From: Sarea resinae
Lineage: Eukaryota
Assembly (NCBI GenBank): GCA_026026165.1
Contig: JAPEUD010000002.1
Location: 310,001-374,000 of the forward strand
Reading direction: 5' to 3'
Length of the DNA: 64,000 bases
Shown here one piece after another: positions 34,831-51,948 of this stretch. Numbering within the stretch: position 1 is the stretch's first letter; each line of letters starts with the position of its first letter. Under the pieces are notes generated by a model that saw only the letters and a program-made list of their open reading frames with translations, ran no database searches and was not told where the DNA came from. A program made the position numbers and the translations under genes.

Positions 34831-37449
34831 TCACACATGCGCCTGCCAAGCCCTCGCGCGGCGTGGGAAAACGCGCTTATAGAGGCTGACGCCGACCGAG
34901 TCCTGCGGATTGATTCTCCCATCAAACGTCGCCTTGAAATACCCATGGGTGCCCAGGCTCTCCTTGATGAAACCGGAGCGGCCGCGGCGCGTCCACAGCT
35001 GCAGCGCCTTGAACCACGCCACGTCCTCCGCGTTGAAGAACATGTAGCGGATCGTGACGAGCTTCTTGTGGATCTTGTAGGGGTGGCCGGTCAGGATGAC
35101 GCGCTTGGCGATGACGCGGGTCTGGTCGGGCGGCTGCGAGGTCCCGGTGCCGAGGAGTTCGAGGGAGGTGGTAGGGCTGGTGGAAGTGGGAGTGTCGGTT
35201 GTCATGGCTTCCGTGTCGGTGGCGTCTTCTTTTTCGACGGGTGCTTTTCGCCGCAGAAACAATGTCGGCACTGAGCCCCAGGTCAGCGGACCGATGCAGG
35301 TGGCCATGGCCGTGCGTCCCGGGTGGAGGTATCGGTCGAATTTGTGGACGTTGTTGGGCGTATTTCCCGGCTGCGAGAACAGTGGTTTGATGAGGAAACG
35401 ACGGGGTCCGCATTGCACAATCAGCTCTTCCTTTGACCTGATGGGCGCATCGTAGTCAGAGCTGAGGGTGATGCTGTAATTGGCCACCGTGTGTTTGTGC
35501 TCATGGCGAAGGAGAGAGAACAGCGACAATGGAGCCGTGGGGTTGTAGGATGTGCGGAGATTCAGGGGAACGGCGCGAAGGTGGACGTTCACGCGTGTCC
35601 CGGGCTGGACAGTGTCAGAATGAAATCGCGTAGCAAAACAGAAGATCCTACCTGTACGCCTCCTACGAGTGCCTCTCGAGTAGCTCTGCTCTTGCCGCCC
35701 TTGTAGTCTGCAACCTGAAGCAGTCTTCCCCATTCCTCGGGTTCGTGTGCTTTGTCCTCATCCGTCTCCCAGTGACTAGTTCGCAAGCTTTTCAGACCGC
35801 GATATCTCGCAAGCCGTTCTCGAGCCAGCACGTTCGGATGCAATTCAATCTCGTCTGGGAATTCGAGATCCTCCTCGGCCTCGTTCCGCCGTTGGGATCG
35901 ATACGCCTCGAGCTCCGCAGCTTCCTCTTCAGGGGATGGATCAAGGAACATCTCGGACTGCGGATATTCTGATGGTGCTATCTCCGTAGGTTCTGGCGCA
36001 GCATTCAACCCCTCAACACCGTCCTGCGGTAAAGCTGGAGTGTCCATGGCCAAGTCTCCCTCTTCATCTTCCGCGTCTTCCAGATCAGATCCAGAATCAG
36101 AGACATCATCAATGTACCAAGCTGACTGGTATTTTGAGGTGCCTTTGGGAAGACGCTTCGGCACCTCAGGCAAGTGCGATTCATCGTCCGAGAAATAATG
36201 GTGGTCATCCAATAGCACACCCTTCTTCTCCGGAACTGCCTCGGTCATAGATGCCGTATCAACATCGTCCATGACTGCTTCCTCTGGAGCCAGCTCGTCG
36301 AGGTCATCTTGATCTTCGGTTGGTTGCTCCAGGACCTTGCTCTCTTCTGCCGCATCGACCGCCATGTCGTCCGTCCGTTTCTTACTCGACTCTAAGGGGG
36401 CTGCCTCAATCTTTTCGATCTGGAAGTCACCCCAGGCTCCGACTTGCACCAGTCTGTCAGCTTTTAGACCCTTTCCTCTGACAACACCTGTCACAACAAC
36501 TTCTCCACGGCGGTCTGACAACTGTGCTGCAGCCTCGTCTTCCTCGGGCCACTGAACGTTTTCAACGAGCATCCAACTTCGATCCTCTCTCCAACGAATG
36601 CCCTTGGGAGTCGTCGTGCACAGGGAGCGTATGGTATTGGCGCAATCTTGCCGCGAATCCAAGGAGTGCACCTTTTCGATGGCTGGAAAGAAATGCGTAA
36701 TGAAAGACTTGAGAGAAGAGACAACTTGAGGGCGCCTCTTTGCTGGCTCAATACTATCAAGTCCCTGCATAGACTGTCAGTAAAAGAATTAGACTTCAAG
36801 AAAACTGAACATACTTGTACGACTGTGAGCGCATTCGAAACTCCTTGGCCTTCAATGCATCGAAGCATTAGCTCTCCCAGATCATCTACCTCCTGCTCGG
36901 GTGAGAGGACAAAGACGACAAAATCAGCCACACGACAGGCATCCAGGGCGGCCATCAGATCTCTTTTGACAACCACAAATTCAAGTTTCTGCTTGAATCG
37001 GTCGATGTTCGCGCGCAAAAGCCCCTCTGTGGGAGTGTCGAGCTCCAGATCCACACTGGCAATCAGACTTCGAACAGCAGCCGCCACATCGACATCCGCA
37101 CACAGTGGAACTAAGGAAACAATCCTAGGAGCTCCATCCCTCCCGGAGAATACGCTCGTGGCCTTGACGTTCTGCTGGTGTTTGACGAGCTGCTTTTGGC
37201 GGGCTTGGTTGCGTCGCTCGATCTTCGACATGACTTGCTGATGAGGAGTTCTTCGACGCCCTCTGTCTCCGTCCTCAATTTTACCTAGAGATCGTTAGCG
37301 GTTTTGGTCAAAATCCTGCCCGTTCTCTGAGATTACACACCCTTGGACCGCTCTTTCAGCTCACTCTTGCTGGCGTGTCGCGACTTGTACGACTTGTTCG
37401 AAGCCTTTGTCGTGCTCCGATGATGATGAGCGTCGACCATTGGTGCCAT
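34831..37449 (-). CDS. TSR1: Pre-40S ribosome assembly factor Tsr1, 4 exons
   Basis: HHHRSTTK...KSRHASK, SKIERRNQARQ, PKGTSKYQSAW, EFPDEIELHP..ARERLARYRGLKSLRTS, KRVILTGHPYKIHK, GFIKESLGTHGYFKATFD. Confidence 0.96.
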
Positions 37450-37698
37450 GGTGCCACCGGCCTTGAATCTGAACGGTATAGTCGCCAGTATGACGGTAAA
37501 GTGAGGAATTTAGAGTTGTTGTTCGTCCTCTGCCCCTCTGACGTTGAATTGGCGGGATGTCGAATATGGAATATTTTTGTGTGGGGTCACGAGGCGATAA
37601 GATAAGCGCAGCCCGCCTAGCCAATCCTAAAATTTCCTTAGCTTGATCAACTGCGACACCACCGGAGTCGACAAGAGAAAGACTTCAACTCCACCGAG
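37450..37698. promoter_or_regulatory. Compact bidirectional promoter shared by TSR1 and UTP7
   Basis: 249 bp between divergent ATGs. Contains GATAAGATAAG (37596-37606), GCCCGCCT and an RRPE-like AAAATTT (37629-37635). Confidence 0.65.
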
Positions 37699-39442
37699 AT
37701 GTCAAATACCACCGCTATGGCACTTGATGCCAGCGGAGTCGAGGGACAGCAGTCAGGAGCTTCAAACCATGCGAATGAACTGGTTCGTAAAAAGTCTCTG
37801 CCTCCAACGGCTCGAGTCAATCCCGAAGATGCAGAAGCCAAGCGTCTCGCCGCCGAAGCGCAAAAAGCCTACGGTCGCGGCCGCAAGATCGCAACCAAAA
37901 GCATCCGAGACAAGAAGCTTCGAGGGAACCTCAAGCGACTAGAGGACAAATACAAGGATGCGGCTATCAAGGCTCGTGATGTCGAGATCTTGCTCGAGAA
38001 CGAATCTGGCTTCATCGAGCCCGAAGGGGAACTTGAAAGGACATACAAGGTGCAGCAAGACGACATACGGGACAATGTAGCGGTTGAGACGGCAAAGAAA
38101 GGGTTCGAACTGAAACTTGAAGATCTGGGACCATACGTGGCAGACTATACCAGGAATGGGCGAGAATTGCTGCTGGCTGGTCGCAAAGGCCATGTTGCGA
38201 CAATGGACTGGAGGGCCGGAAAGCTGGGATGCGAATTACAGCTCGGCGAGACCGTGCGGGATGCAAAGTGGTTGCATAATAATCAGTTCTTTGCTGTAGC
38301 TCAGAAGAAGCATGTCTACATCTACGACCATGCAGGTGTAGAGCTGCACTGTTTGAGCAAACACGTCGAGGTCACGCATATGGAATTCCTGCCATACCAC
38401 TTTCTGCTTGCGACTATTGTAAGTCCTATAAGACCACACCTCATAAGCAGGTCGCTGATATTCAAAGGGGAACGCGGGCTATCTAAAATATACCGACACC
38501 TCCACCGGTCAGATGGTAACCGAAATGCCCACCAAAATGGGCTCTCCAACTTCCCTAGCCCAAAATCCCCACAATGCCATCCTCCACGTCGGCCACCAAA
38601 ATGGCAATGTCACTCTCTGGTCTCCAAACTCCACTACTCCCCTCGTCAAGCTCCTCGCCCACCATGGACCCGTACGGTCTCTCGCCATCGACCGGGAAGG
38701 CAGATATATGGTATCTGCAGGCCAAGACCTCAAAATGGCCGTCTGGGACATCCGCATGTTCAAAGAAGTCAACAATTACTTCCTCCGGCAGCCAGGGTCT
38801 TCCATCGCCATTAGCGATCGCGGCCTTACAGCCGTAGGATGGGGAACGCAAACCTCGATCTGGAAAGGCCTCTTCGATAAGGCTTCGACTGACCAAGAGA
38901 AAATCCAGAGCCCCTACATGGCGTGGGGCGGCGAGGGCAAACGGATAGAACGCACGCGCTGGTGTCCCTTCGAAGATGTTCTTGGCATCTCACACGAAAA
39001 GGGCTTCTCCAGCATCATCGTCCCCGGAGCCGGCGAGCCTAACTTTGATGCCCTGGAAGTGAACCCCTACGAGAATACCAAGCAACGGCAAGAGACTGAA
39101 GTGCGCGCGTTGCTTAACAAACTACAACCGGAGATGATCTCTCTCAACTCAGACTACATTGGCAACCTAGACCTGGTGTCGGCCGAGCAACGCAAGAAGG
39201 AGGCCGATCTCGATCGCAAGCCAGAGGACCCGCTTCTGCACGTGAAGAATCGGGGCAGAGGCAAGAACAGCAGCCTGAGGAAGTATCTGAGGAAGAGAGG
39301 CAGTAAGAACATCATTGATGATAAGAGGCTCAGAATTGAGGCATTGAGGAAGGAGCAGATCAAGAAAAACAATGCGAAGCTGAAGAAGAGCGAGCAGGAG
39401 CTCGGACCGGCTCTTGCGAGATTTGCGCGAAAGGGGGCATGA
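37699..39442 (+). CDS. UTP7: U3 snoRNP/SSU processome WD40 protein Utp7 (BING4 C-terminal domain). Intron 38419-38467
   Basis: YTRNGRELLLAGRKGHVA, FFAVAQKKHVYIYD, EFLPYHFLLAT, NPHNAILHVGH.NG.VTLWSP, IIVPGAGEPNFDALEVNPYE. Confidence 0.96.
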
Positions 39443-40039
39443 TTGGTGTTTTCTGCTGAGGAGAATATCAGCTATTGCCAAGGATTGTGCGGCTTGTGTT
39501 GCTGGTGGAGTTTTTTTGACGTAGAGGGACATTGCGTTTGTTGTCTCAAGCATTGCATAGCATGGCTGGCGTTTGTGGGGTTCATCTCGTATCCCTTGTT
39601 TCCTACTCATATGATTCACTGGCTTCTGCGAGCTTTACAAAAGGCTCTCAATCGGACAGACAAGAAACCTAAAAGCTTCCATGTACGATTGAGATCCGCC
39701 GTTGCCCTGTGTAACCAACATCCCGAAGCTGAAAATAGCCACGAGGTCCCAATAATCCTTCGCCAATCTCAAAGCCTCAGAGCAGAAGGTTCCCACCGTG
39801 TGGCTACCAGCTAGGCCGTTTGTATCTATCTGGAAAGGATCTGATGCCTCTCAGTGTAGCATAGATGTACCATAGGGTGGAGATGTGTAGGCGGGAGGAT
39901 CGGTAGTATTCTATTCTAGAGGCGAACAGTGGTTTCAACCACTCCCAATTCACCTAAGCGCCGCTCCTCAAGATATCCCCTTTTAAACGGCTGATCCCCT
40001 GGAGGCCAGGCTCGATCCTATAGAGGCAAAAGAGCAAAG

Positions 40040-40860
40040 CTAGCACGATAATGTAATCCTGATGATTGCCGCCATTCTATGACCCGTAACCCGTAACTTG
40101 TCCATGGAATTCGCCCATGAGACCTCCCGGATCCGCTCTGGAACCTTGAGGTCCTCGTTTATCTCTTTGAGATTATTCGCGATGCCCTCTATGGAGTCTG
40201 CGAGAGTCTCGATAGTTTCCCCCTTCTGATTCGTTGCGTCTTCCGTCTTCTTGATCTGATCTGCTTGGTCCTTGATTTGATCTTCCAGGCTCGTCAGGAC
40301 AGTTTGCATAGTGACGGCCACTATGACCGATCAAAGCCGTGAGCCCTCTGGCCCAGGAAATCCGTCGTTTTCGCAAGAGATATCGAAGCATGTTGTCCTG
40401 TCCAGCATCGGAGATAGAGTGATGGTAAAGCAGCTGTAGCAGCTTGGCTGGCAGACATCTCCCAAGCTCGTCGCCTCGCGGAAACTACGATATAAGGGAA
40501 AAGCAATGGCAGAGGTTCCAATAGGAGGTGAGCGTCGCCTGCTTGCGTTCTTCTAGGGCGGCTGACTGGTCGATTTTCCAACATCTTTGGAATAATTCTT
40601 TCCATGCCCAACCAACAGGCAATGAATACACCGGCTTCTCGCAACATTCTTACAAACTCCGGCGTGAAACAAGGCACAAATGAATACGCATTTCCCTCCA
40701 CACAGCACGCCCATGAATATGCCGTTAAAACCGAAGAACCTCGAGCCAGAGTCACCTTCCTCCGAAAGGGGTTGTTCCTCGTAGTTTCCTTCAACAAACC
40801 CTCTACTGTTGCGTTTTCCTTAGCCTCTTCCTCTCCGGCATAGGTCCCCCAGATTCCCAA
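40040..40860 (-). pseudogene. Gene relic with an FPYIVV..R..QAATAA motif followed by a coiled-coil segment
   Basis: Fragmented minus-strand ORFs 40321-40860 and 40040-40321 (MQTVLTSLEDQIKDQADQIKK heptads). Confidence 0.4.
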
Positions 40861-41959
40861 GCTGGCTGTGATGTATCCTGCTCATGTGCAGGACTTGTGC
40901 CCGTTTTGCGGTCACAGTGCTCGTACCCACGGCCCAGCTTGGACGTACGTACCTATACCTTTTGTTGGCACGCTCGGTCACACAAACGAGTGGACAGAGG
41001 GTTGCACTTACAGAGCCGTCCCAGGGGACGCGCCACTATTGGGGGGCGTGACCTGCCCGGTGGAAGCAGAGGGAGCGGAAGGAGCGGCGCCAAACGGTGA
41101 AGAGTACGAGCTGACAGTCCCGGACGCGTTCAATCTGTAAACAGTGTTAGCCTGTATGTATTACACGGGAGAAAGAGAACACTTATAGGAGAGTACCAAC
41201 CCAAAGGATGATCCATTATAGGGGGCTGTGACCTGGCCGAAGTGCGCAAAGAGCGCGACAGACAACGGCGTGGCGGACGAGGGACCTGGGCAACTGGAAT
41301 ACAGAAAGGCGGCGGACCCACCAAGAGCGCGGACACACCAAGGGCGCGGACACACCACGGGCAGCGTAGGGCTGCATGATCTCCGCTATTCTTGACATGA
41401 CCTAGCCTAGCGAGCGACCTCGTCGACCGACTGAGAGCGCGAGGAACGAAAGCTGCTCCCGCAGTTAGCCTGATTCTACGACCAGGGGGAACCTAACACC
41501 GCGCGCGTGTATCTGCCGATCTCATTAGAGACTGGTTTCGCTCTTGTAATACTCGCCTCTTCCTTTCCACGTCTTGATAACAGTGTTGCTACTGCTTAGT
41601 CTTGTCACGGCCCCTTTTTCTTCTGGTCACCTCTCTAGCTACTGCATAATATATATGTTAGAGGATTGGCGCTCTAGTTATTCAATCTCTCTCTTTTCGA
41701 GGTTTAATAGTACGCCTGCGAATTAAAGAGCCCCTTGATATTTGGGAACGGTGCGTATAGGGGCTGGAACAGCCTCAATTTTCTCAAGTCCATATATCTT
41801 GGTTCATTGGCAGTCAATCTTGACGAGCTTAGCTTTGTGTTTTAGAAGGTTGTACACATCAGCGCTGTGGTTCCGAAAAGAGCAGGGCATGCCCAATTGG
41901 CTATCAGAGGAGATATCAAGTTGAGGTTTGGTCTCAAGGACGTGCAAGGAAACCTGGTT

Positions 41960-42060
41960 ACCCTCTAGATGAGAAATCCGATGCTCAGCTAGGTCGGTGA
42001 CCGGCATTTCACCGATATCAGTGAAGAATAAATCGTCCATTCGTTGCACCAACTCAGCCA
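41960..42060 (-). mobile_element. Fragment resembling the Ty3/Gypsy pol region just upstream of reverse transcriptase
   Basis: DLFFTDIGEMPVTDLAEHRI resembles the DLF....LP.TDL.EH.I segment. No RT core follows. Confidence 0.45.
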
Positions 42061-43184
42061 TTTGTGATTGGGCCTTACAGCGCTGCATCTTTTTCTTCAA
42101 ACTACCAGCAGCACTTTGTAGAGTTGCAGTTGGTGAGAGTCCCTAGTTGATGACAGTATCTGCGATTAAGGCCCTCGAAACACTCTCTCGGGCTGGCCAA
42201 TAAGCTCTTCTGGTGTAATCTCAGCCCAGAGAGTAGCCATGTTAGTCTGCGCAACAAGATCGATGTCTCGAGTCTGACGGTCTGCACCGCCGCAGATCAT
42301 ACCTTAATCCGATCAGGTCTCGGGTTGTATGGAAGATGCAAATCACTCATTCATTTCATGATCCGTCTAGGACGTCATACAAAGACAAAGACCAGTCGAT
42401 TGAATTCGTTTAGAGGAGCTATCGAAACCTCTTCGATCCGAACAAGGGAAGAGCCAGATGTCGCTTTCTAATTGGCAGTTGTGGTCGCTGAACCTTTTGA
42501 TATCGTATTGTGATTTCGGTCTAAAAAGAACTAAATTGTCTGTAGAAACGCCCTGGGCACCTTTCCATGGATATTCGGATGACCGGAAGGGGAACTCGGC
42601 GGCGGTGTCAAATCCCTATAGCAAGCTGAGAACTAAGTCCACATCCAGGATTCAGGCAACTCTAACATTTCATGATCGGCCTGTATTCTCAGCGGAAACG
42701 GATAAACTACTCGTCGCAGCTTTGTAGGGTAAGTAGTAGCACCATGTGGCAACCCAGGGAGGCTGACTTGTAACCTGTACTTAGGGCAAGGCTGCTCAGC
42801 TATTTTGACATCCAGGTGCCCGCTGACTACTAGGGCCAGGTGATGAATCCTCTGGCTTAGCGGAATTAAAGCTTTACTGCAGGTCAGCTTTATCCTTGAA
42901 CTTAGATAGATAGCTTAGGGCCTCGATTATCTCTAGAGAGCGTACTATTGTGCTCGAAGAAGTTCTGAGAGTTGCTTGTAGCGTCCTAAGGCGTGAGCTG
43001 GCGGCGCTAAGAGAGGACCGGAGATCTCTCCCTGAAACGAGAAGAAAGCAACGAGACAGAGAAGAGCAGAATAGGCTGGCAATCAGGTATCTGTTGTAAG
43101 CTAGGCTCTTTGCCAAATAAGGTTATGTAGCCAGTCAAAACCTACTCTACGTGCTTCAGCCATTCCGGCCCCGTCCAAGTGCAA

Positions 43185-43526
43185 TCATCCCTGCTCGGTG
43201 ATTCCTGGCAGTGTATGCTGCGTCCATATAGTCCTGCAGCTCCGCTGTGACAGGACGGCCCGGCTCCGCGTCCGCCTGGTCCCAGGCACGCGAGAGGTAT
43301 CCGCCCACCCATGCTTATCGCATCGGCTGCAGGCGGGGCAAGGGTTCATGCATACCCTGAAGTGCCCTTTTCCGCAGTCTGGGCAGGTGGGCTTGTCTTG
43401 CCTCCTTGGTTTTTGCGGCATGTCAGCAGCTCGGCCTTCCGCAGTGGTCGGCTCATCGAGGTGCACAGGGTCGTCTTGTGACTTAGACGCCGCATGCTTC
43501 GACATGTCAAGGTCATTGCCCGACAT
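43185..43526 (-). pseudogene. Gag-like zinc-knuckle fragment
   Basis: CPDCGKGHFRVC (CX2CX3HX3C) followed by PCPAC, preceded by basic low-complexity sequence. Confidence 0.4.
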
Positions 43527-44334
43527 CTATACGAGTTGATTAACTATTTTGTTTCATATGCGGTCGACCTTGCCTTGATTTTCAAAGATATCAGCAGAAG
43601 AGAGAACCCGCGGCGGCAATATGCCCGAAGCCATATTTCTGGATCTGGCTGCGTCTCGCAGCTCGGACGCCACCTCTACACTGATGCATTGGCACCAGTA
43701 GGCCAGCATCACCCAGCTTCGTATGGAGCCTGCCGTTTGGAGAGTCTAAACAAGGGACCGAGGGGATATACTTCCGGAGTCGTGCCGGTGGATGTGCCAC
43801 CATTGTGGGCTGTGGCCTGTCCGGTGGAAGCGACGGGAGCGTTGCCGAACGGAGTAGCTAAACCCAACCATATCCATTGCTATGCGAAAGATAAGAAGAG
43901 ACAAGGAACAAAACCACAATCTCACACTGTAAAGAAATTCCCCGATCCATCACAGAAGGCCTAGCGGAATGGGGGTGGTGGGCAAAAGCGTGGCAGACGA
44001 GGGATCTGGGCAACTGCGGCCCACGAGGACGAAGCACCAGATTTCGATGGCCAAGGACCCGAGCAGGAACGCCATAAACTGCACGAAGGGCCAATCGACA
44101 ATCTTCAAGAGGGAGGAGTCCCTATGCCCCTGAGCGTTCCCCCAAACTACGTTAGCTTTCCCGACCCCTAATCTTGGTTCAGCGTTGCTGAGTATAAACT
44201 TGGCCAGCAGAAAGAGCCGTGCCATTGGAATAGGAGAGCTCGGGGAGGGGGGTGGAGGGCGGGAGCCTGCTGTTGCTGTTGCGGTTGCGGTTGAGGCTGT
44301 GGATGGGGAGGTCTGGGTGGTTGCCGATCTAAGT

Positions 44335-45400
44335 TCATCGCTGGTTCGATAACTGATCTCTGCACTGATGCCTGCTTGAGTCGCTTGTGATGAAGGTTGA
44401 AGGTTGCATTTCATCTGCATCTTTTCCTCGCCACTTTCTTAGTCTTAGTATGGCCTGGGTTTTTACCGCCCTCATACTCTCTTCGAACGGTTGATTCAGA
44501 GCAACAGCCTTCATGGCATTACTCTCTTCGTATCGTCTCGAAATTTCTTCCATAGTAACAGCAACACTTTGTAGAGTTGCAGTTGTACTTCTTTATCATA
44601 TTTTAGCATTATTAGCCTTTTCCTTGCCTGGCCGGTTATCTATAAGGGAAGCGTCTGTAGGTGGATGTAAATCTGCGATCTTCAGCCTCTAGAATCTTTC
44701 TAATAGCTAGATAGCAATATCTCTAAAGCCATAGTCTCTTGACATCTCCTGGGTGCTAAGTTTCTCCACATAGTCTCGCGTGTGCTCGCACTGAATCTTA
44801 GTGGAACGCATCTTGTCCCGAGTCGTTAGTATCAGACAAGGGTAGATTCTCAACTGCCTCTAGAGAATCATCCTTTTAAGGTCCTAGCTCAGCGATAGGC
44901 ACGACATACTTCTCTGGGATATATATTATATACTCTACCAGAGATGGTTCTAGCTCATCGATCGACACCCATCATAGAGACCTTGACACGCTCAGTCTCC
45001 ATGGATGTTATCCTTGCCTGCTCGAAGGCATATGGTTGAATCCACTCAGGCGGGTGCAGGATCACTTCCTCTCTAAAGAATGTCATCTTTCTTATTTTTC
45101 CACGACAGCTTCTTTAGAGAGTTCACGGCCGTGGAGCTGCTGGCTAGTAAAAACAAATCTCTTGCTCTTATACAAGCTATATTTATCCTCTGCTTATCTG
45201 CTATAAATCCTAGACGCAGATTAACAACTAACTTAAATATCACTACTAGGGCTTCATAGCCTTAAGAGGAATTGACTGTATTTCCACGTTCACCAAAGGT
45301 GCTTCAAATCCGCGTAATAAGATAGTAGAGTCGTCAGTGCCTTTGATGATGTCAAATATGTCGTAAATTTCGTGAAACCCCGTGTGGGGTCGCCCTCTGT
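44335..45400 (-). pseudogene. RIP-damaged reading frame of unknown family
   Basis: Protein-like runs (GRPHTGFHEIYDIFDIIKGTDD, FREEVILHPPEWIQPYAFEQARI, TATLQSVAVTMEEISRRYEE) separated by TAG/TAA stops. Confidence 0.4.
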
Positions 45401-45799
45401 TAGGCGGGTCCCTCAGGTAGGCTGCTCGAACGGCGCTGACAGGTAGGCGCCTTGGGCGCGGCTAGTAGCCGGCTATGGGCTAGGGATAGGCAGGATGGGT
45501 ATGGCTTGGTAGGCAGCAATCGTATATAGTTTCTATGCTTCAATTACTACTATCCTCGTAGAGTTGAATGCTGAGGTTCTATCCTCTAGCATTCAGGCCC
45601 TGCTATGTGGGAATCGCTTCGATGCCTGGCAACCCCTATTACCCCGCTCACGTGCCTCTGATCTGATTCCATGCGATTCTATGGCTTTCCCTGCTGCGGC
45701 GGTGCAGCAGCCACATGTGGCGGTCTGAGCCGCGCAGCGCCCCTGACACCCTCTGACCCTGATCGGCGTCCGTGCTGTTATTCTCTGCCAACTAACTGT

Positions 45800-47790
45800 C
45801 TTCTCTTGCCTGAAAATCATACAGGCCTTTGTCTGAAACCCAGTCAAGCTTCTTAATAGGCGATCTTTGACTTCAGTTGCGAGTTTGGTAGGTGTGCTGT
45901 TAGGCCATCGTGCGATGACTATAGCGAGGTCCTTATCATTGTGGTCGAACCATTTTGAAACGAGCAAGTTTTCGTCGTTCTCTAGTGAGAACCTTTTAAG
46001 AGGGGACTTTGATGATATGACTGACGTAGATGGAGACATTTTCGAGGGACCTACATCGACCGTCTAATTCAGGGCGACCAAGTGGACGTAGAGCCAATGA
46101 CTTCGAAGATTTTTCTTGGTGGCGCCGCATTGATCCCAATAGCATGTCGTTGAGTGCGAGTCCACATGCGCAAAAGTTACGTGTTGCTCCAATTGCCGTA
46201 CCTTTTCCAATTTCCTGCCACAGCTGCGCCATTTGCATTTGAATTCCACACGTACAGACGGCTTCGTTGGTTCTTGCGCTTCTAGTGTTGTGTGGTCGCT
46301 CATTTGCTGCATCACTTTATCGAACTCCACCTGAGGAAAGTCTTGAATACTAAGCAATATGCTCTTAGCTCTCTTATATATCTTAGCTTAATACTTGTTT
46401 TGCTGCGCTCTGTATAGTGTGGTAATATAGATTTTGCTTATCTAAATTGTTGCTGATTTGTAAAGAGCTACAGTAAGATCTAATACCCAAAGAATATTTG
46501 CCTCTTATTAAACTTAGATCTTTGTAATTGTAGTGTCTTGGCTAGCATGGTATAGGGATTCATTTGCGCCGAGTACCTAACCACGGCCCCCTTCTAGGTG
46601 GTCTGCAATACAATAATATTAGCCTGTCGCTATGCTTAATGTCTGTAAAAATCAGTCTTATATACTTGTCTTTTTCAGAAGACACACTAAAGCGCTTTTT
46701 CTCTATATAAGAGAGTTATGTTATTTAAACGCGACAGATCGAGCTGTGCCTTTGGAGGTGGACCCGGAGGATAGGTCTGAAGAATGTTATACAGGCTACT
46801 AACCCAGCGACCTTGCTGATCTATCAAGAATCGAAACGGACGAACGCTCGAGAGAGATGCAGTAACTTTGTGTTGTTCTCCCCACCATTTTGCTGGTATT
46901 GAACCTCTTGGGAAACAATATGCTATCGTTGGTTCACCGTGGTTCGATACGATGGCGTTTGACTCGATGTCTTCCCGTCTGGTCGTCTAAGGTGCAAATC
47001 TGCCTCTGTCTCATCCTCGCTGGAAGAATCTTGCAGAGTATCGAGGTCCCACTATTCGAGTGCGAGACCACGCAATATCGACTGAAGGTGTGATCGAGCA
47101 ACTAGAGTTCTGTCGATACCAATTGCTAAGGAACGAGCATATAAAGCAGTGAATAGTGCGATTAATTGCTAGCGCTTCAAGAAACTTTTTATCATCTCTA
47201 CTAATAGAGGTCAGTCTGTTAATAGGCTGTTTGTCAAATAACAAGTATTTAGGAAAGCTATTATAACAGGATGCGGTTAAATTGCTGGTGAGATTTAATT
47301 GTAGGAAACCTCGTAGCCTAAAGTTGTAAGAACAGCGACTTTTTGAAGTCAAAGCATGTTTATTGTAATAGGTAAATTCCTGGCCAGGCGTAAATGTCCG
47401 CGCGAGCTGTGTCTTATCTCTGACTGGAATAAGACCTGTGACACGATTCCTTGCACTGAGTTTTATAACTAGAATCTATAAATTAGATTCAAGTTCTCTT
47501 CTAGCTTTGTCTTGAATAACAATAATGGTAGCAGTGTCTTCTCCAAAGTTGGTGCGATCTTCTTCGCTACCAACATTGTTGTTGGTGGACAAGTCATCTG
47601 TTCTTAAACACGATATGATTGAGCTTCAGCAGCACAGCGTGATCTGGTTGAGATTCCTTATGTTTAAATTCATCCCCTGTGCTATTGTACACCCTGATGT
47701 CACCGGCCAGCGCGAAGACTTTCCAAAGTCGATGCGCCGTTCTATCGTCTTTAAGAACACCGAGGAGATCTAGATCCATGGCCACTTAAC
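45800..47790 (-). pseudogene. Large degraded gene carrying tandem C2H2 zinc fingers near its 3' part
   Basis: FKCKWRSCGRKLEKVRQLEQHVTFAH and CYWDQCGATKKNLRSHWLYVH at ~46240-46080. Upstream frames are broken by stops in TA-rich blocks. Confidence 0.55.
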
Positions 47791-48338
47791 GGGCTTTTGA
47801 GGCTCCTCAGCCATCGGCCGGCTAGCAATCTCGAATATTTCGGCTGAGTGGAAGGCCAAGGCGAGCAGTCCTCATGCGATTGCTTGACCTAACCAGCGTG
47901 TGCGACACCAAGGGAATCCTCAGTTTGCTGAAAGCTTTTCTCATGATAGGGACTGTGACATTATGTATTTCGACCCTAGCGTTAGCAAGGTGGAAATGAT
48001 AATGCGCCACCAGCTCTCATCGTGCGTGAAGTAGGCAGATGACCACGCGCTGTTTCCCTGGGACTACCTAGGGTAGAGAGAACTCTAGGGCGTGATTCTA
48101 GGCGGCTCTGTAGGTGGCCCTTTCCAGCCCGTCCTCCTCTTGACAATCCGTCTTGAAGCTGTGACTTTGCTGTACTCTTCCTTTGATCGAGGCAGGAGTT
48201 TTCTGCTATCTGAATGGAAATAGATGCCTTACGAGCAAAAACACCCTTTGCAAAACGGCCCTTAATGGCCTGCGGCCCACGAAGACGAAGCACCAGATTT
48301 CGATGGCCAATGACCCGAGCAGGAACGAATTCACCCTT

Positions 48339-48644
48339 TTATCTATATGTCGAAATAGGTTCTGGTAGGATTCTGCTCACGAGTGCATCCGACAGGGGCC
48401 CAAGGCCTGTAAGTGCCACGTTTGCCAGCAATCTACAGAGGAGAGTGCCGTGAGCATTCGGCTGGCCAGAGAGGCTGCTTGGCCCAAGAAGGAGGTCGCG
48501 GTGAGCAATGGCAAGGTCATTCCAGGTTCTGAATTCTGGAATCTCGAAGGTGCTGTGATCCTTTTCAATTTTCACGAGCCAGGGAAAATATATGCGCAAA
48601 GCCGTACTCCCTGATATTGCCAGAGTTTTGTAACTCAAACGCAA
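48339..48644 (-). pseudogene. Copy 1 of the unknown FPWLVKIEKDH domain
   Basis: 47/72 aa identical to the ORF at 49286-49567 by manual alignment. Confidence 0.65.
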
Positions 48645-49285
48645 TATTGGCGTTGAGGCCTTGGCACCAATGGCCGAGGGTGACCCAGCTTTTTATGAAG
48701 CATGTGGCCCCTTCCAGGCCCCGGACAAGGAGGACTAGACTCGACCCCTGTGGGGCCTCCGTGAGGTAGCGGATCAGGTTGCGGTATGGGCCCCCCCCCC
48801 CCCCCCCCCCCCCCGGCGAACTTTCGTAGGGTCGGGCGCCGGAGCGTGAGGAATAGTTGGTAAAGTGAGACGCACACTAGGTGGTTGACGTCTTACTCTG
48901 ATTCCGAGTTTGGCTGCATCAGCCGGCGTCCCTATTTTCGAGCCAACATCCTGAATTTTGCTGGTCTGGTTACAACGTTTCAGCTCTCTCTTTGATATTT
49001 CAGCCGCCTACGCGTTTATCTTATTGTGCATACCGAGCAAAAGTCGTACGCAGTTCTTGTTGTCCTCGTCGTCAAGCAATACCGTCACCTATACTATGTT
49101 TAGTCCTCTTCCACGTTCAACTATTATCTGTAAGCTGCATCCTAATCAGAGTGCTCTAGGTGTAGCCCAGGCAAGTAGTGGAAGTACGCTCTTGTGCCTA
49201 GTCGCTGTAATAAAGCCAAATTCCTAGACACGGAAGCCTTCTCGGAGTACTACTTCTGTGTCCGGATCACTACTGCTGGATCGTC

Positions 49286-49567
49286 CTATCTGCGTCGGCC
49301 CACCAATGCATCTGACAGTGCACCCAGTCCTGTCACAGCGACGCTTGCCAGAAATTTATATGGAATAGCTCCGTGCGTATTCGGGTGTCCTGATGGACTA
49401 TTCAGAGCTGGCACCAAATATCGATGCGCGATAGCGATCTCGTTCCAAGTCCCTGACTCGGGTATCTCGAGGGTGTTATGGTCCTTCTCGATCTTGACCA
49501 GCCATGGGAAAATGACACGCCGGACTTTAGTCGGATCCGGTGCTGGACCGTGTGGAATAGTCGGCAT
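49286..49567 (-). CDS. Copy 2 of the unknown FPWLVKIEKDH domain (ATG start; early TAG may be a RIP-type stop)
   Basis: Paralogous to 48339-48644 with mostly synonymous differences. Confidence 0.55.
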   Translation of the reverse strand: MPTIPHGPAPDPTKVRRVIFPWLVKIEKDHNTLEIPESGTWNEIAIAHRYLVPALNSPSGHPNTHGAIPYKFLASVAVTGLGALSDALVGRRR

Positions 49568-50593
49568 GGTAATACGCGCGCCGTATTAGGGGCAGGGTTG
49601 TCTCTTAATTTGAAGATTTAGCTTTGCTGCGTCCGCTGGAGTCTAGAGTTTGGCGTCAACGTCTTACCTTATGTAGCACATAGCTGTGTAGGAACCACTA
49701 GATCCTCAACCAAAGTTTGGTCCCTCTACCTGTAGTCCCTTTAACCCTTCCTGTATGCTTTAGTCGACTTCTTTTGGTGTTTCTTGGTAATATCCCTGTA
49801 TATAACAGTCTGTTTATTGCTTAAGATTAGAATGATTTTCTTTAGACTTGTTATTATATAGCTCCTTATAATCTGTCTTCTCTGTAATATTAAGTCTTTT
49901 GCCTCTCTTATACTCTTAGTCTTAGGCTTATCTTTATCCTTAGGTAATCTTGTTATCCTCTTCTGCTGTATTAGCAGCTAGTGTATTCTTAATTCTAAGA
50001 CAGAAGTCTAGACTTAAGCAGTCTCTCCTAGTTAGTATATAGTATTAGCTTTGCTTTTCTTTTTTCTTAAGCCAGGTGTGAGCCAGATATAAGCTAGTTA
50101 GGAGCTGGCTTAATTTAAGAGCCCTAGGGTGCATCACGTATTCGATATATAGTGACTGATATCTGATATCTGCATGACCAATGGCGTTCCTCGTGCGTCA
50201 GGCATCAGTAGTATGCCATGGTATAAGCTGTATAGATAGATCCGACCATCGTTCTAGTAAAATGAAACAGATTGAAAAGCAATAAAGATGCTTACAAAAC
50301 GAGAGGTGGTGCTCGAGAGACAGGAAGTGCAGGGAAGGGCTTTATCAATGACGTGACTCGACGTCTGGTTGCGAGTGAATGAGGAGCACATTGCCGGTGG
50401 GGAAGCCAATAGCTTATGGCCGTGAATGCTAGGGAAGTGAATGCGGCAACCAGGAAGCCAAGTGTGTCAGCAGCTCAATCAATCCAAAAATGCTGGCAAA
50501 TAATAGAAGAGGAAGCAAATAGATAATTGTCTATGTTCTATCAATGTGTTTTTTGCATCTACCCTCCATATGGTACCTAACTGGCCCACATAC

Positions 50594-51948
50594 TCACTCA
50601 TCCTCTCCCATTTCCAGCACAACCTTCAACACCAGATTCCCCTGCGCATCCACCGTCTTGCCAGCCATCTCGAAAGCCTCTGGTGCATTTTCGAGGCCCT
50701 TGTATCGATGCGTAACCAGCTTCTCAAGATCCAGTGCGCCTGGACCCTTCTTCGATACAAGCTCGATGCCTCGCTCGTACGCATGTTTCCCGTATCGGAA
50801 TACACCCACGAGGTCGACTTCTCTTAGAGCAGCGGCAGAAATGGGAAGGGTTTGCACAGGCGTGCCCATGCCTATCAGCATTATGCGGCCGCCTGGGCGG
50901 GTTGCCTGGTTGACGTAAGTCATCTGAAATAGAAAAAGAAGGTGGTGCGTAAGAGAGACATACGTAGATGGCAGCTTGGAGGCACGACTCTTGGCCAGTG
51001 CATTCAAAAACAGCATCTACCTCTCCAATAGTACCCCCTGTCTCGTTTTCTACTTTACCCACCGAGGCAGCAATTTCCCTCGCAGTCTCGAGCTTCTGCT
51101 CTACAGTCTCTCCTCGTTTCCGTGGTACGACAAGTCCCCGGCGCGCAAATCCATTCTTGACAGCAAAATCAACACGGCCTTGGTCAATATCTGCAATAAC
51201 AACCGTACTTGATCCAATCAGTGTTGTCGTAGCTGCGCAGAGCAAGCCCACTGCTCCGGCCCCAAATACGAGGACTGTGCTATTTGGAGCCAATTGAGCC
51301 CGCTGAGATGCGTGAATTGCTACGCCGAGGGGTTCTAGAAGACTGCCGAGAGCCAGAGATACATTTTCAGGAAGCCTGGATCCTCATATTAGTCTGTGTG
51401 ATGCATCGAGAAATCATAGATCTCAGTCTCACTTATAGCACCAAGCTGCGGGATGGTTTATTCTTTCCTGTAACGTCCCTTGGAAGTGCGGAAAAGATTT
51501 GGCTGAGCTCCTGAAACTCATCCCTTTGCATATATTGTACCTCCCTTCGGCGCATCGCTCGCATTTCCCACATGGAAGCCCAACTTCCAAAGCCACTTTG
51601 TCTCCAATTTGAAAATTTGAGACCGCCGAGCCGACGTTTGTGACCACACCCGCAGACTCGTGGCCTAGGGACATGGGCTCACGGACAATAATATCGCCAT
51701 TACGGTAGTGGTGGTAATAATGAAGATCTGAGCCGCACAGTCCCGTCGATTGGATCGACACTTGAATCTCGTCAGGGCCAGGCGCGCCTAGGGTTCTGCT
51801 TTCCTTTGCACGTCTCATAAGTGCTGTTCTACGGCAATGTATTCTCTGGCATGCTCACTATTCGCAGATTCCCTGCACCATGAAGCACAGAAGCCTTGAT
51901 CGTGCGAGGCACGCCCGATGCTGTCGATTCGACACTCGACGGCGACAT
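50594..51948 (-). CDS. Zn-dependent medium-chain dehydrogenase (sorbitol DH family), likely L-idonate 5-dehydrogenase-like. Exons 51948-51859, 51803-51433, 51375-50964, 50905-50594
   Basis: GLCGSDLH, GHESAG, structural Zn CGKCERC...C, GAGAVG, VFECTG, GVFRY. Has FRSSAKSFPHFQGTLQ rather than the FAATPP of canonical SDH/XDH. Confidence 0.88.

Follow-up and report, generated by a model that had tools for sequence, protein, structure and literature searches.

The DNA between the UTP7 gene and a pair of dehydrogenase genes in Sarea resinae is a nested patchwork of gene fragments, 60-700 bp long and separately imported from at least nine dispersed families; every piece of assignable sense lies on the minus strand. 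The window, that is, the whole stretch of DNA analysed, was 64,000 nt of assembly GCA_026026165.1 (contig JAPEUD010000002.1, forward strand, positions 310,001-374,000). The island occupies 39880..50124 of the window (~10 kb) and is one of dozens of similar patchworks sharing a pool of pieces. Its polarised, terminus-free nested architecture is unusual; no earlier description of a genome-wide set of terminus-free, strand-polarised mosaics growing by nested inserts was found in the literature searched. The features are given below; C-numbers denote other contigs of the same genome, and YWCQG-AWD is a working label for an unnamed gene piece.

37642..39442, plus strand: UTP7/BING4 host gene, left flank (Pfam BING4CT; transcription converges on the island)
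40040..40330, minus strand: coiled-coil ORF fragment (from the ORF list; 37% amino acid identity to a C74 paralogue)
40373..40452, minus strand: dispersed segment without family assignment (85% DNA identity to C78)
40597..40881, minus strand: S64-like protease fragment, a weak assignment (70% DNA identity to a C59 ORF)
40984..41296, minus strand: S/T/G/P-rich exon pair, copy 1, with an intron-like gap (71-75% to 43748-44016)
41741..42100, minus strand: probable coding relic (no Pfam, Gypsy or protein match)
42212-42310 and 42398-42455, minus strand: dispersed segments without family assignment (87% to C133 and 84% to C105)
42531..42815, minus strand: PhyH-type dioxygenase fragment, amino acids 495-589 of the 879-aa reference (clusters with the copy in the C61 island; support 97/94)
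43100..43314, minus strand: YWCQG-AWD piece, 3' part (continuous with 43607-43730 in C105 and C134)
43315..43606, minus strand: Zn-knuckle gene fragment inside the YWCQG-AWD piece (aligned to an intact 225-aa C69 paralogue)
43607..43730, minus strand: YWCQG-AWD piece, 5' part (86% DNA identity to C105)
43748..44016, minus strand: S/T/G/P-rich exon pair, copy 2 (repeat of copy 1; splice-like signals by eye)
43950..44438, minus strand: S/T-rich and hydrophobic-segment ORF of a dispersed family, 162 aa open (paralogues on C102, C60, C99 and C74)
44404..44523, minus strand: PhyH-type ORF, N-terminal fragment, amino acids 19-58 (match to the reference ORF)
44822..45285, minus strand: SF1 helicase relic, C-terminal end (AAA_12, E 3.5e-4, below cut-off) and 3' flank
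45286..46327, minus strand: C2H2-finger ORF, internal fragment inside the helicase relic (62% amino acid identity to a 356-aa C137 ORF)
45398..45748, minus strand: Ty3/Gypsy solo LTR, 351 bp, TG...CA (75% to both LTRs of a 7.4-kb C101 element)
46328..47599, minus strand: SF1 helicase relic, middle, degraded (47203-47592: 34% amino acid identity to a C72 paralogue, E 7e-13)
48166..48335, minus strand: second piece of the S/T-rich hydrophobic-segment family (85-93% DNA identity to C74 and C94)
48369..49133, minus strand: PhyH-type fragment, amino acids ~420-604, split by a YWCQG insert (halves collinear with the C11 Gypsy ORF)
48590..48813, minus strand: YWCQG fragment inside the PhyH-type piece (64-67% DNA identity to C134 and C105)
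49262..49666, minus strand: PhyH-type fragment, amino acids 480-614 (nearest to Gypsy-borne copies; 72% DNA and 81% amino acid identity to C56:192863)
49670..50124, no strand assigned: AT-rich, RIP-marked segment of unassigned origin (RIP indices; single-copy)
50594..51854, minus strand: Zn-dependent dehydrogenase, right flank (Pfam ADH_N; presumably of sorbitol/xylitol-type substrate)

The flanking genes, UTP7 (+), the Zn-dehydrogenase (-) and a short-chain dehydrogenase (+), were genuine by their Pfam matches (BING4CT, ADH_N). The original prediction, made from the letters alone, held that nothing between them is recognisably intact, and indeed no Pfam family reached its curated cut-off in 42 overlapping frame translations of the island (21 per strand, X for stops). 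The longest ATG ORF on either strand was 156 aa. There may be a small gene at 43950-44438; the island is probably non-functional debris of non-coding grade. About 45% of it had no paralogue in the 0.92 Mb of genome compared.

The sense of a piece was fixed through a paralogous ORF, a Pfam match or a parent element. All 12 pieces that could be assigned in this way (four PhyH-type, two YWCQG, helicase, C2H2, Zn knuckle, coiled coil, S64-like and the solo LTR) were on the minus strand (two-sided binomial ~0.0005), as predicted for the coding relics. The predicted coiled-coil, Zn-knuckle and C2H2 modules were borne out by paralogues elsewhere in the genome. For the S/T/G/P-rich exons, said to be intron-bearing, intron-like sequences are visible, while the splice-like signals were read by eye only; no copy of the exon pair was found outside the island. 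The proposed Gypsy-like fragment at ~41741-42100 did not survive, as it matched no Pfam family, no protein and none of three resident Gypsy elements. The solo LTR and the dioxygenase, helicase and protease pieces had been overlooked. The C59 relative of the protease piece matched Peptidase_S64 at E 9e-4, below cut-off. The helicase relic at 44822..45285 was collinear with C61 and matched helicase paralogues in tblastn, and its middle at 46330-46600 matched only at the level of motifs, by eye. Searches of longer proteins gave no match to the C2H2 ORF, the YWCQG piece or the 41.7-kb relic, two of two Atlas queries (including the C102 paralogue of the S/T-rich hydrophobic-segment family) gave no usable match, a sequence search of PDB gave nothing below E 0.05, and none of 26 pattern matches in viral contigs was confirmed.

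Three of the pieces that are not transposable elements were nested inside others, and all three were co-oriented with the recipient, internal to the ORF, and followed by a near-exact return to the recipient (within 0-22 nt), with 2-4-nt overlaps at the junctions. The Zn-knuckle insert (43315..43606) retained a 47-nt intron, with ~22 nt of recipient gone and no target site duplication (TSD). The C2H2 insert (45286..46327) had the 5-nt direct repeat GTGGA on either side and 2-nt overlaps to its donor. The YWCQG insert (48590..48813) began in a G run, without a TSD, and ~4 nt of the PhyH-type recipient was lost. Marks of LINE retropseudogenes were missing at these junctions: there was no poly(A) at any, no TSD in two of the three, and the intron was kept in one. 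The solo LTR, by contrast with these inserts, is an ordinary Ty3/Gypsy insertion, with TG...CA ends, a match to a full element, the 5-bp duplication CCCTC at 45393-45397 and 45749-45753, and an empty site in the C137 paralogue. Its C101 parent carries RT, integrase and chromodomain motifs, read by eye in translation, and is more mutated than the LTR itself.

Ordinary transposable element insertion thus accounts for only ~0.35 kb of the island. As a whole it was not an LTR retrotransposon, having no long terminal direct repeat and no gag or pol match; nor was it a Pack-MULE or Pack-TIR element, with no inverted repeats at E<=1e-3 and no TIRs or TSD at its edges. In a scan of the edges the longest exact direct match was 9 nt, and the longest inverted match, 12 nt, lay away from them. 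Both edges were single-copy in the genome. These results agree with the view that the island is a mosaic of paralogous modules on one strand and not one LTR, LINE or TIR element. Later RIP, also proposed, was upheld in part: TpA/ApT was 0.94 in the island against 0.63-0.65 outside, and patchy marks were found when RIP was tested as TpA excess and CpA/TpG depletion, but only 6 of 38 300-bp bins reached the indices.

The strand polarity extended to the other islands. Across 38 regions with 170 shared segments, nine segments were discordant, compared with 24.2+-2.3 (minimum 16) and 17.4+-2.3 (minimum 13) under two nulls of 40 replicates each. A smaller test made earlier found 6 discordant links among 86 against 18.3+-2.6 (minimum 11 of 150), and a 44-region test with a weaker optimiser, now superseded, gave 16 of 170 against 31.7 and 25.5. 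Dozens of same-strand patchworks indicate a copying process that preserves strand direction. The window island and the C61 island had collinear blocks in common. Module order in the window island is shuffled, and pieces sit inside others. Two Copia pol pieces in islands were co-oriented; internal Gypsy or LTR pieces were co-oriented in C86, C89, C92 and C133 and anti-oriented in C59 and C74. No LTR pairs flanking other islands were recognised in 18 stretches, which had only short repeats of 59-258 bp, and the intact Zn-knuckle and C2H2 donors had no LTR bounds within the 10-30 kb inspected. Read-through from host genes was considered by hand as a source of polarity: of the islands between tandem host genes, four were co-oriented, two opposed and one mixed.

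Relatives were compared by a scan with the C-terminal exon of UTP7, in which 80 of 133 metagenome relatives were retained, all of them distant (64-84% amino acid identity). TSR1 adjoined UTP7 in 43 of the 80 loci. None of these distant loci had the dehydrogenases downstream of UTP7 or any homology to the island, and thus none held a conserved, collinear island. An empty insertion site was not found because all retained relatives are this distant. In a DNA sequencing run that is possibly the source of the assembly, a minor genome at ~48x has 48774-50432 in common with the window but lacks two modules, the PhyH-type piece at 49262-49666 and 49745-50206; these differences may be deletions instead of gains. 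Contigs from that same run at ~340x, which are not independent support, covered the Zn-knuckle, C2H2 and LTR junctions without differences. They skipped the G run at 48782-48824, and none of the pieces listed reaches from one end of the stretch to the other. Two further runs gave short matches only, mostly in conserved flanks.

Four of the island pieces derive from one PhyH-type 2OG-Fe(II) dioxygenase ORF, which is carried in sense as an extra third ORF by 11.8-kb Ty3/Gypsy elements. Six copies of these elements have ~400-bp LTR pairs that are 94-97.5% identical, and the C56 copy has the PR-RT-RH-INT order by Pfam. The ORF region is exchanged among copies of the element, the C11 and C56 copies being 94% identical over the upstream internal body and 72% over the ORF region. 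Residues H610, D612, H711 and R721 of the HxD...H...R motif are conserved in 36 homologues. PhyH was matched by 7 of 26 homologues, one above cut-off, and a model of the natural homologue P0002 resembled DUF1479 and PhyH-type structures (best E 6e-6). By this motif and the modelled double-stranded beta-helix fold, the product belongs with the PhyH-like 2OG-Fe(II) dioxygenases; its catalytic activity is a prediction.

The polarity may originate in copying at the RNA level, by template switching of a reverse transcriptase followed by recombination of the cDNA into islands; we favour this explanation tentatively, judging it a little short of probable. The reverse transcriptase of resident Gypsy or Copia elements would switch between co-packaged RNAs for a few hundred bases and return to the first RNA at 2-4-nt microhomologies. 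The chimeric cDNA would then recombine into a homologous island with no integrase, a route known from work in yeast, so that islands would grow in place without LTRs, target duplications or poly(A). Integrase insertions such as the solo LTR, and patchy RIP, would be superimposed afterwards. For plant LTR elements, PMC13317346 describes abnormal template switches that join unrelated co-packaged RNAs, and for a fungal LINE, PMC2104539 describes RT double jumps. The polarity of all 12 pieces, its genome-wide excess, the nested co-oriented inserts, the Gypsy-borne sense ORF with its exchanged region, the mostly matching orientation of other retroelement pieces in islands, the non-sister repeats and the minor genome that skips modules argue for RNA-level copying. 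Against it stand the retained intron of the Zn-knuckle insert and the apparently intron-bearing S/T/G/P-rich exons, since spliced RNA would lose introns; an unspliced template would be called for. No intron-loss junction was found, the C57 helicase comparison being too divergent. The nine discordant segments, the donors without LTR bounds and the ~45% of the island without a paralogue also count against it.

The main rival is ectopic repair at the DNA level, in which a broken island invades a homeologous piece elsewhere, copies its neighbour and rejoins by microhomology; polarity would be inherited because homology sets the direction. Such conversion accounts for the kept introns, the missing termini, the blocks collinear with C61 and the module-level differences of the minor genome. 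It is on balance unlikely, since the nested inserts are bounded by 2-4-nt overlaps and not by homeology, with the return within 0-22 nt, microhomology capture from DNA should show no strand preference, and the initial co-orientation of unrelated families is left unexplained. The original prediction had offered the remnant of a large cargo element, which could be Starship-like or a co-oriented multi-gene element, deleted down and later reshuffled. DUF3435 captains do exist in the genome, synteny with distant fungi breaks at the site, and old termini could have decayed. But all five captain matches are on C28, C35 and C104 and none in the window, the ends are single-copy with no direct repeat or TIR above chance length, and a comparison of the 17.4 kb surrounding the best captain with the islands gave no match at E<=1e-5. 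Shuffled, nested order and a minor genome that differs module by module, not as a whole block, make descent from one such element quite improbable.

A birth-and-death array, the other predicted origin, is barely conceivable: it is refuted for the dioxygenase family, and only the S/T/G/P exon pair might have arisen in this way. The island does contain eight internal direct repeat pairs and no inverted ones at E<=1e-3 (57-97% identity; at least five had been predicted), compared with 0-1 matches in each of five other window stretches and none in 20 of 20 dinucleotide shuffles, and the S/T/G/P pair was found only here. But the repeats are short, interleaved and non-tandem, and in the tree the overlapping dioxygenase pieces, three in number, group with copies elsewhere and not with one another, so that the repeats are separate imports. 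Nested transposon debris, co-oriented by chance or insertion bias, would fit the one true solo LTR with its TSD, the four Gypsy-ORF pieces and the RIP patches. It is largely refuted and highly improbable: no gag, pol or LTR from the elements that carry the ORF is present in the island, its inserts are ORF-internal and without termini, and the polarity exceeds both nulls. Capture by non-autonomous Helitrons could yield chimeric, intron-bearing fragments; same-orientation capture is known in maize, and gene fragment capture in fungi is described in PMC6431247. This, too, is extremely improbable, as the genome has only one PIF1 locus (with a working control) and no Helitron_like_N match (the control also gave none), and the island ends are not repeated: repeated 5' TC and 3' hairpin-CTRR ends were assessed by copy number, and both edge regions are single-copy.

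Helitrons, Pack-MULEs and Pack-CACTA elements, as described in PMC6431247, PMC4224331 and PMC13317346, resemble the island in their chimeric short gene fragments with introns and their dispersed copies. Unlike them, the island has ends without shared termini, TIRs or TSD, no Helitron helicase was found, and islands swap pieces instead of moving as units. Known fragment-capturing elements are bounded by their own termini; the Sarea mosaics are not. Chimeras of BARE-2/Veju LTR elements and LINE retropseudogenes in Magnaporthe also fuse unrelated transcripts directly, by single or double jumps (PMC13317346 and PMC2104539), but have LTRs or LINE ends, TSDs and two to three parts, whereas the island has at least 14 parts, no termini, a kept intron and growth in place. 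Like a Starship, the island is accessory DNA flanked by host genes, in an ascomycete that is RIP-competent and has captains elsewhere in its genome. Against the definition in PMC11162782, it lacks a captain, DR/TIR and any DUF3723, FRE, PLP or NLR Pfam match, and its content is fragments where that of a Starship is cargo genes.

If the RNA-level explanation is true, it would give fungi a way to form chimeric orphan genes, and the pieces would escape RIP because they are short and diverged. A broader reading, which we consider distinctly unlikely, is of a terminus-free, retrotransposon-driven exon-shuffling compartment, in which RT-patched islands would be a reservoir for the Gypsy third-ORF slot and the predicted dioxygenase an accessory acting on nucleic acid or in host defence. 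Homologues of the dioxygenase are widespread in fungi and make up an unnamed protein family of 836 clusters (50% identity), which is here linked to the third ORF of Gypsy elements in the Sarea resinae genome. In orchids, too, large Ty3/Gypsy elements carry a 2OG-Fe(II) dioxygenase as an added ORF, with retained iron-binding residues (PMC9289625). The extra domain there is AlkB/ALKBH5-like, whereas that of Sarea is PhyH/DUF1479-like by Pfam and homologue fold, and the Sarea element differs further in its ~880-aa protein, its fungal host and its exchangeable ORF region.

The island (39880..50124 of the window) lies in a genome assembly of 25.5 Mb and 143 contigs, where the window is C56:310001-374000. 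UTP7 (+) and a Zn-dehydrogenase (-) border it, each with its 3' end towards the island. The structure of the introns and the stops of RIP type suggest that the genome is that of a filamentous ascomycete. None of its 42 frame translations contained a Pfam family at that family's own cut-off, which upheld the original prediction that no gene here is recognisably intact. Comparison of the island with itself gave eight direct repeats and no inverted ones, as against 0-1 matches in each of five control stretches and none in 20 shuffles. The island is non-random. Both ends are single-copy in the genome, a search with the entire interval found matches at 34 other places, and DNA and protein matches to a comparison set of 125 loci (0.92 Mb) covered at least 55% of it. 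RIP, also proposed earlier, was indicated in six of 38 bins and not in the remainder, and a suspected Gypsy-like fragment found no confirmation from Pfam, resident Gypsy elements or protein comparison. As a locus, the island is probably functionless.

The largest repeat family in the island traces to an ORF of 879 codons, for which the genome has 37 matches. Near-full copies sit within 11.8-kb elements with LTRs of about 400 bp (both LTRs seen in six), and the least mutated element copy encodes protease, RT, RNase H and integrase, followed by the 879-codon ORF in sense. These are Ty3/Gypsy elements with a third ORF, and they fall into two families.

11.8-kb Ty3/Gypsy elements with a third ORF in sense (contig:positions)
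C60:213640-225503
C138:56493-68648
C56:182633-194421
C56:9158-21088, second family
C77:16415-28343, second family
C101:11488-23257, second family
C107:124685-136455, second family

Three of the four second-family copies lie between two 4-bp CTAG sequences, which may point to preferred target sites. Proteins related to the third ORF form 836 clusters outside this genome, and the 10 looked up are unnamed or "hypothetical". HxD...H...R is kept across 36 aligned homologues, seven of 26 homologues matched PhyH (Pfam), and a structure predicted for one natural homologue, with a mean pLDDT of 78, resembles DUF1479 and PhyH-type dioxygenases. The literature searched, in part and exclusive of supplementary tables, Repbase and Dfam, contained no case of a PhyH-type ORF in a Gypsy of a fungus, and neither PhyH nor 2OG occurs in PMC3248453. 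The ORF region differs far more among element copies than the upstream body does (e.g. 57-72% vs 87-94% identity), which suggests that it may be exchanged as a cassette among Gypsy copies.

Five matches to the dioxygenase ORF in the island represent four separate pieces, and no gag, pol or LTR of the 11.8-kb elements was found within it. In a tree of 22 matches covering the shared dioxygenase stretch (those spanning <55 residues excluded), the three window copies did not form one group, as read from the topology. Copy 1 has 81% identity with a Gypsy copy, copy 2 joined a C61 island copy (support 97/94), and copy 3 had no resolved placement; the three look like separate imports.

Other pieces of the island
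SF1 helicase piece, from Pfam and protein comparison with paralogues
C2H2 ORF piece, from a paralogous ORF
Zn-knuckle ORF piece, from a paralogous ORF
YWCQG-AWD gene piece, no established name, labelled from its translations
S64-like protease piece
coiled-coil piece
S/T-rich hydrophobic family piece
solo LTR, 351 bp, from a different, 7.4-kb Gypsy, TSD CCCTC

The solo LTR went in as integrase insertions normally do, and the C137 paralogue has the empty site. Three other pieces are nested. A 224-nt YWCQG piece lies within a dioxygenase piece, whose sequence picks up about 4 nt further on. A Zn-knuckle piece of 290 nt, including a 47-nt intron, lies within the YWCQG-AWD piece, with about 22 nt of the recipient missing and an overlap of 3-4 nt. 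Between two helicase motifs, the upstream one matched by eye only, lies a stretch of 690 nt from inside the C2H2 ORF, with GTGGA on each side and junctions overlapping the donor by 2 nt. All three inserts are ORF-internal and co-oriented, and no terminal repeats or poly(A) were found at them. The YWCQG insert starts with a run of about 25 C (window 48789-48813) that has expanded from a G-rich donor stretch; the length of the run may be uncertain. AAA_11/AAA_12 SF1 helicases are expanded in this genome (31 matches; C57, C52, C72, C77, C97, C139), many of them broken and located in islands.

The other places matched by island pieces are similar patchworks. Linkage of 44 regions by blastn (E<=1e-5, self matches and matches <36% GC removed) gave 170 segments in 65 families and 38 regions, with a median of about 150 bp. 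The regions were picked for matching island pieces, a choice that leaves orientation free. When each region was given one polarity, only 9 of the 170 segments were discordant, compared with 24.2+-2.3 (minimum 16, 40 runs) under random flips. Because that null can be set too high where several collinear segments come from one gene, 86 neighbour blocks were also flipped, giving 17.4+-2.3 (minimum 13, 40 runs); an earlier test on fewer regions had 6 of 86 links discordant vs 18.3+-2.6. The island opens onto an unusual process acting genome-wide. Adjoining one mosaic island (C74, about 197181-198257; L174:4182-5258, +) is a 359-aa open frame with SsdA_C, the ssDNA deaminase toxin C-terminal domain (E 9e-21). 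Equal-score match pairs (C11:45793-48435 and C118:45758-48400; C84:148153 and C123:60998) are probably contigs assembled twice.

Assembly was piecemeal, nested and polarised, from a shared pool, and we infer a copying step that preserves sense across unrelated donors. Our tentative preference is for RT jumping between co-packaged RNAs, with recombination of the cDNA into a resident island. RT would move among the RNAs, keeping sense, and the chimeric cDNA would recombine into the island without leaving termini, a step invoked because termini are absent; such recombination into resident copies has precedent in yeast. The in-and-out inserts are short, several pieces come from retroelements, and Gypsy copies appear to exchange their third-ORF region, all of which favour this reading. 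Its weak point is that the Zn-knuckle insert kept its intron, so unspliced RNA would have to serve as template. Ectopic conversion at the DNA level, the main rival, is less likely.

A derelict cargo element is less probable still, no Starship captain being present in the window; stop-bearing DUF3435 captains occur elsewhere (C28:21132-22364, C35:422993-423256, C104:95559-95984). That the island is ordinary TE debris seems quite improbable, Helitron activity even more so, with a single PIF1 in the genome, and a local array is the most remote of these explanations. In its workings the island resembles both RT chimeras and the capture of gene pieces by Pack-elements or Helitrons. It does not belong with them or with Starships by their defining features: no captain lies in the window, self-comparison and an edge scan found no TIR, DR or LTR pair, and no RepHel partner was found in the genome. 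The comparison drew on parts of PMC6431247, PMC11417382, PMC11162782, PMC4224331, PMC13317346, PMC3248453, PMC9289625 and PMC2104539, and the literature searched, partial and exclusive of supplementary domain tables (Starship and LTR surveys), held no terminus-free polarised mosaic in fungi.

At 80 UTP7 loci, all from distant relatives, the dehydrogenases and the island are both absent. In the one sequencing run that contains this DNA, possibly its source, a second contig with a depth of 47.9 vs about 340 for the main one (about one seventh) aligned with indels to window 48774-50432, skipping 49114-49669 and 49745-50206, as read from summary tables. We take this contig to come from a minor genome in that library, of a related strain or species, which shares the nested YWCQG junction region but lacks two modules. 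The divergent TSR1-UTP7 ribosome-biogenesis pair (window 34831-39442) is linked in 43 of the 80 other fungal loci.
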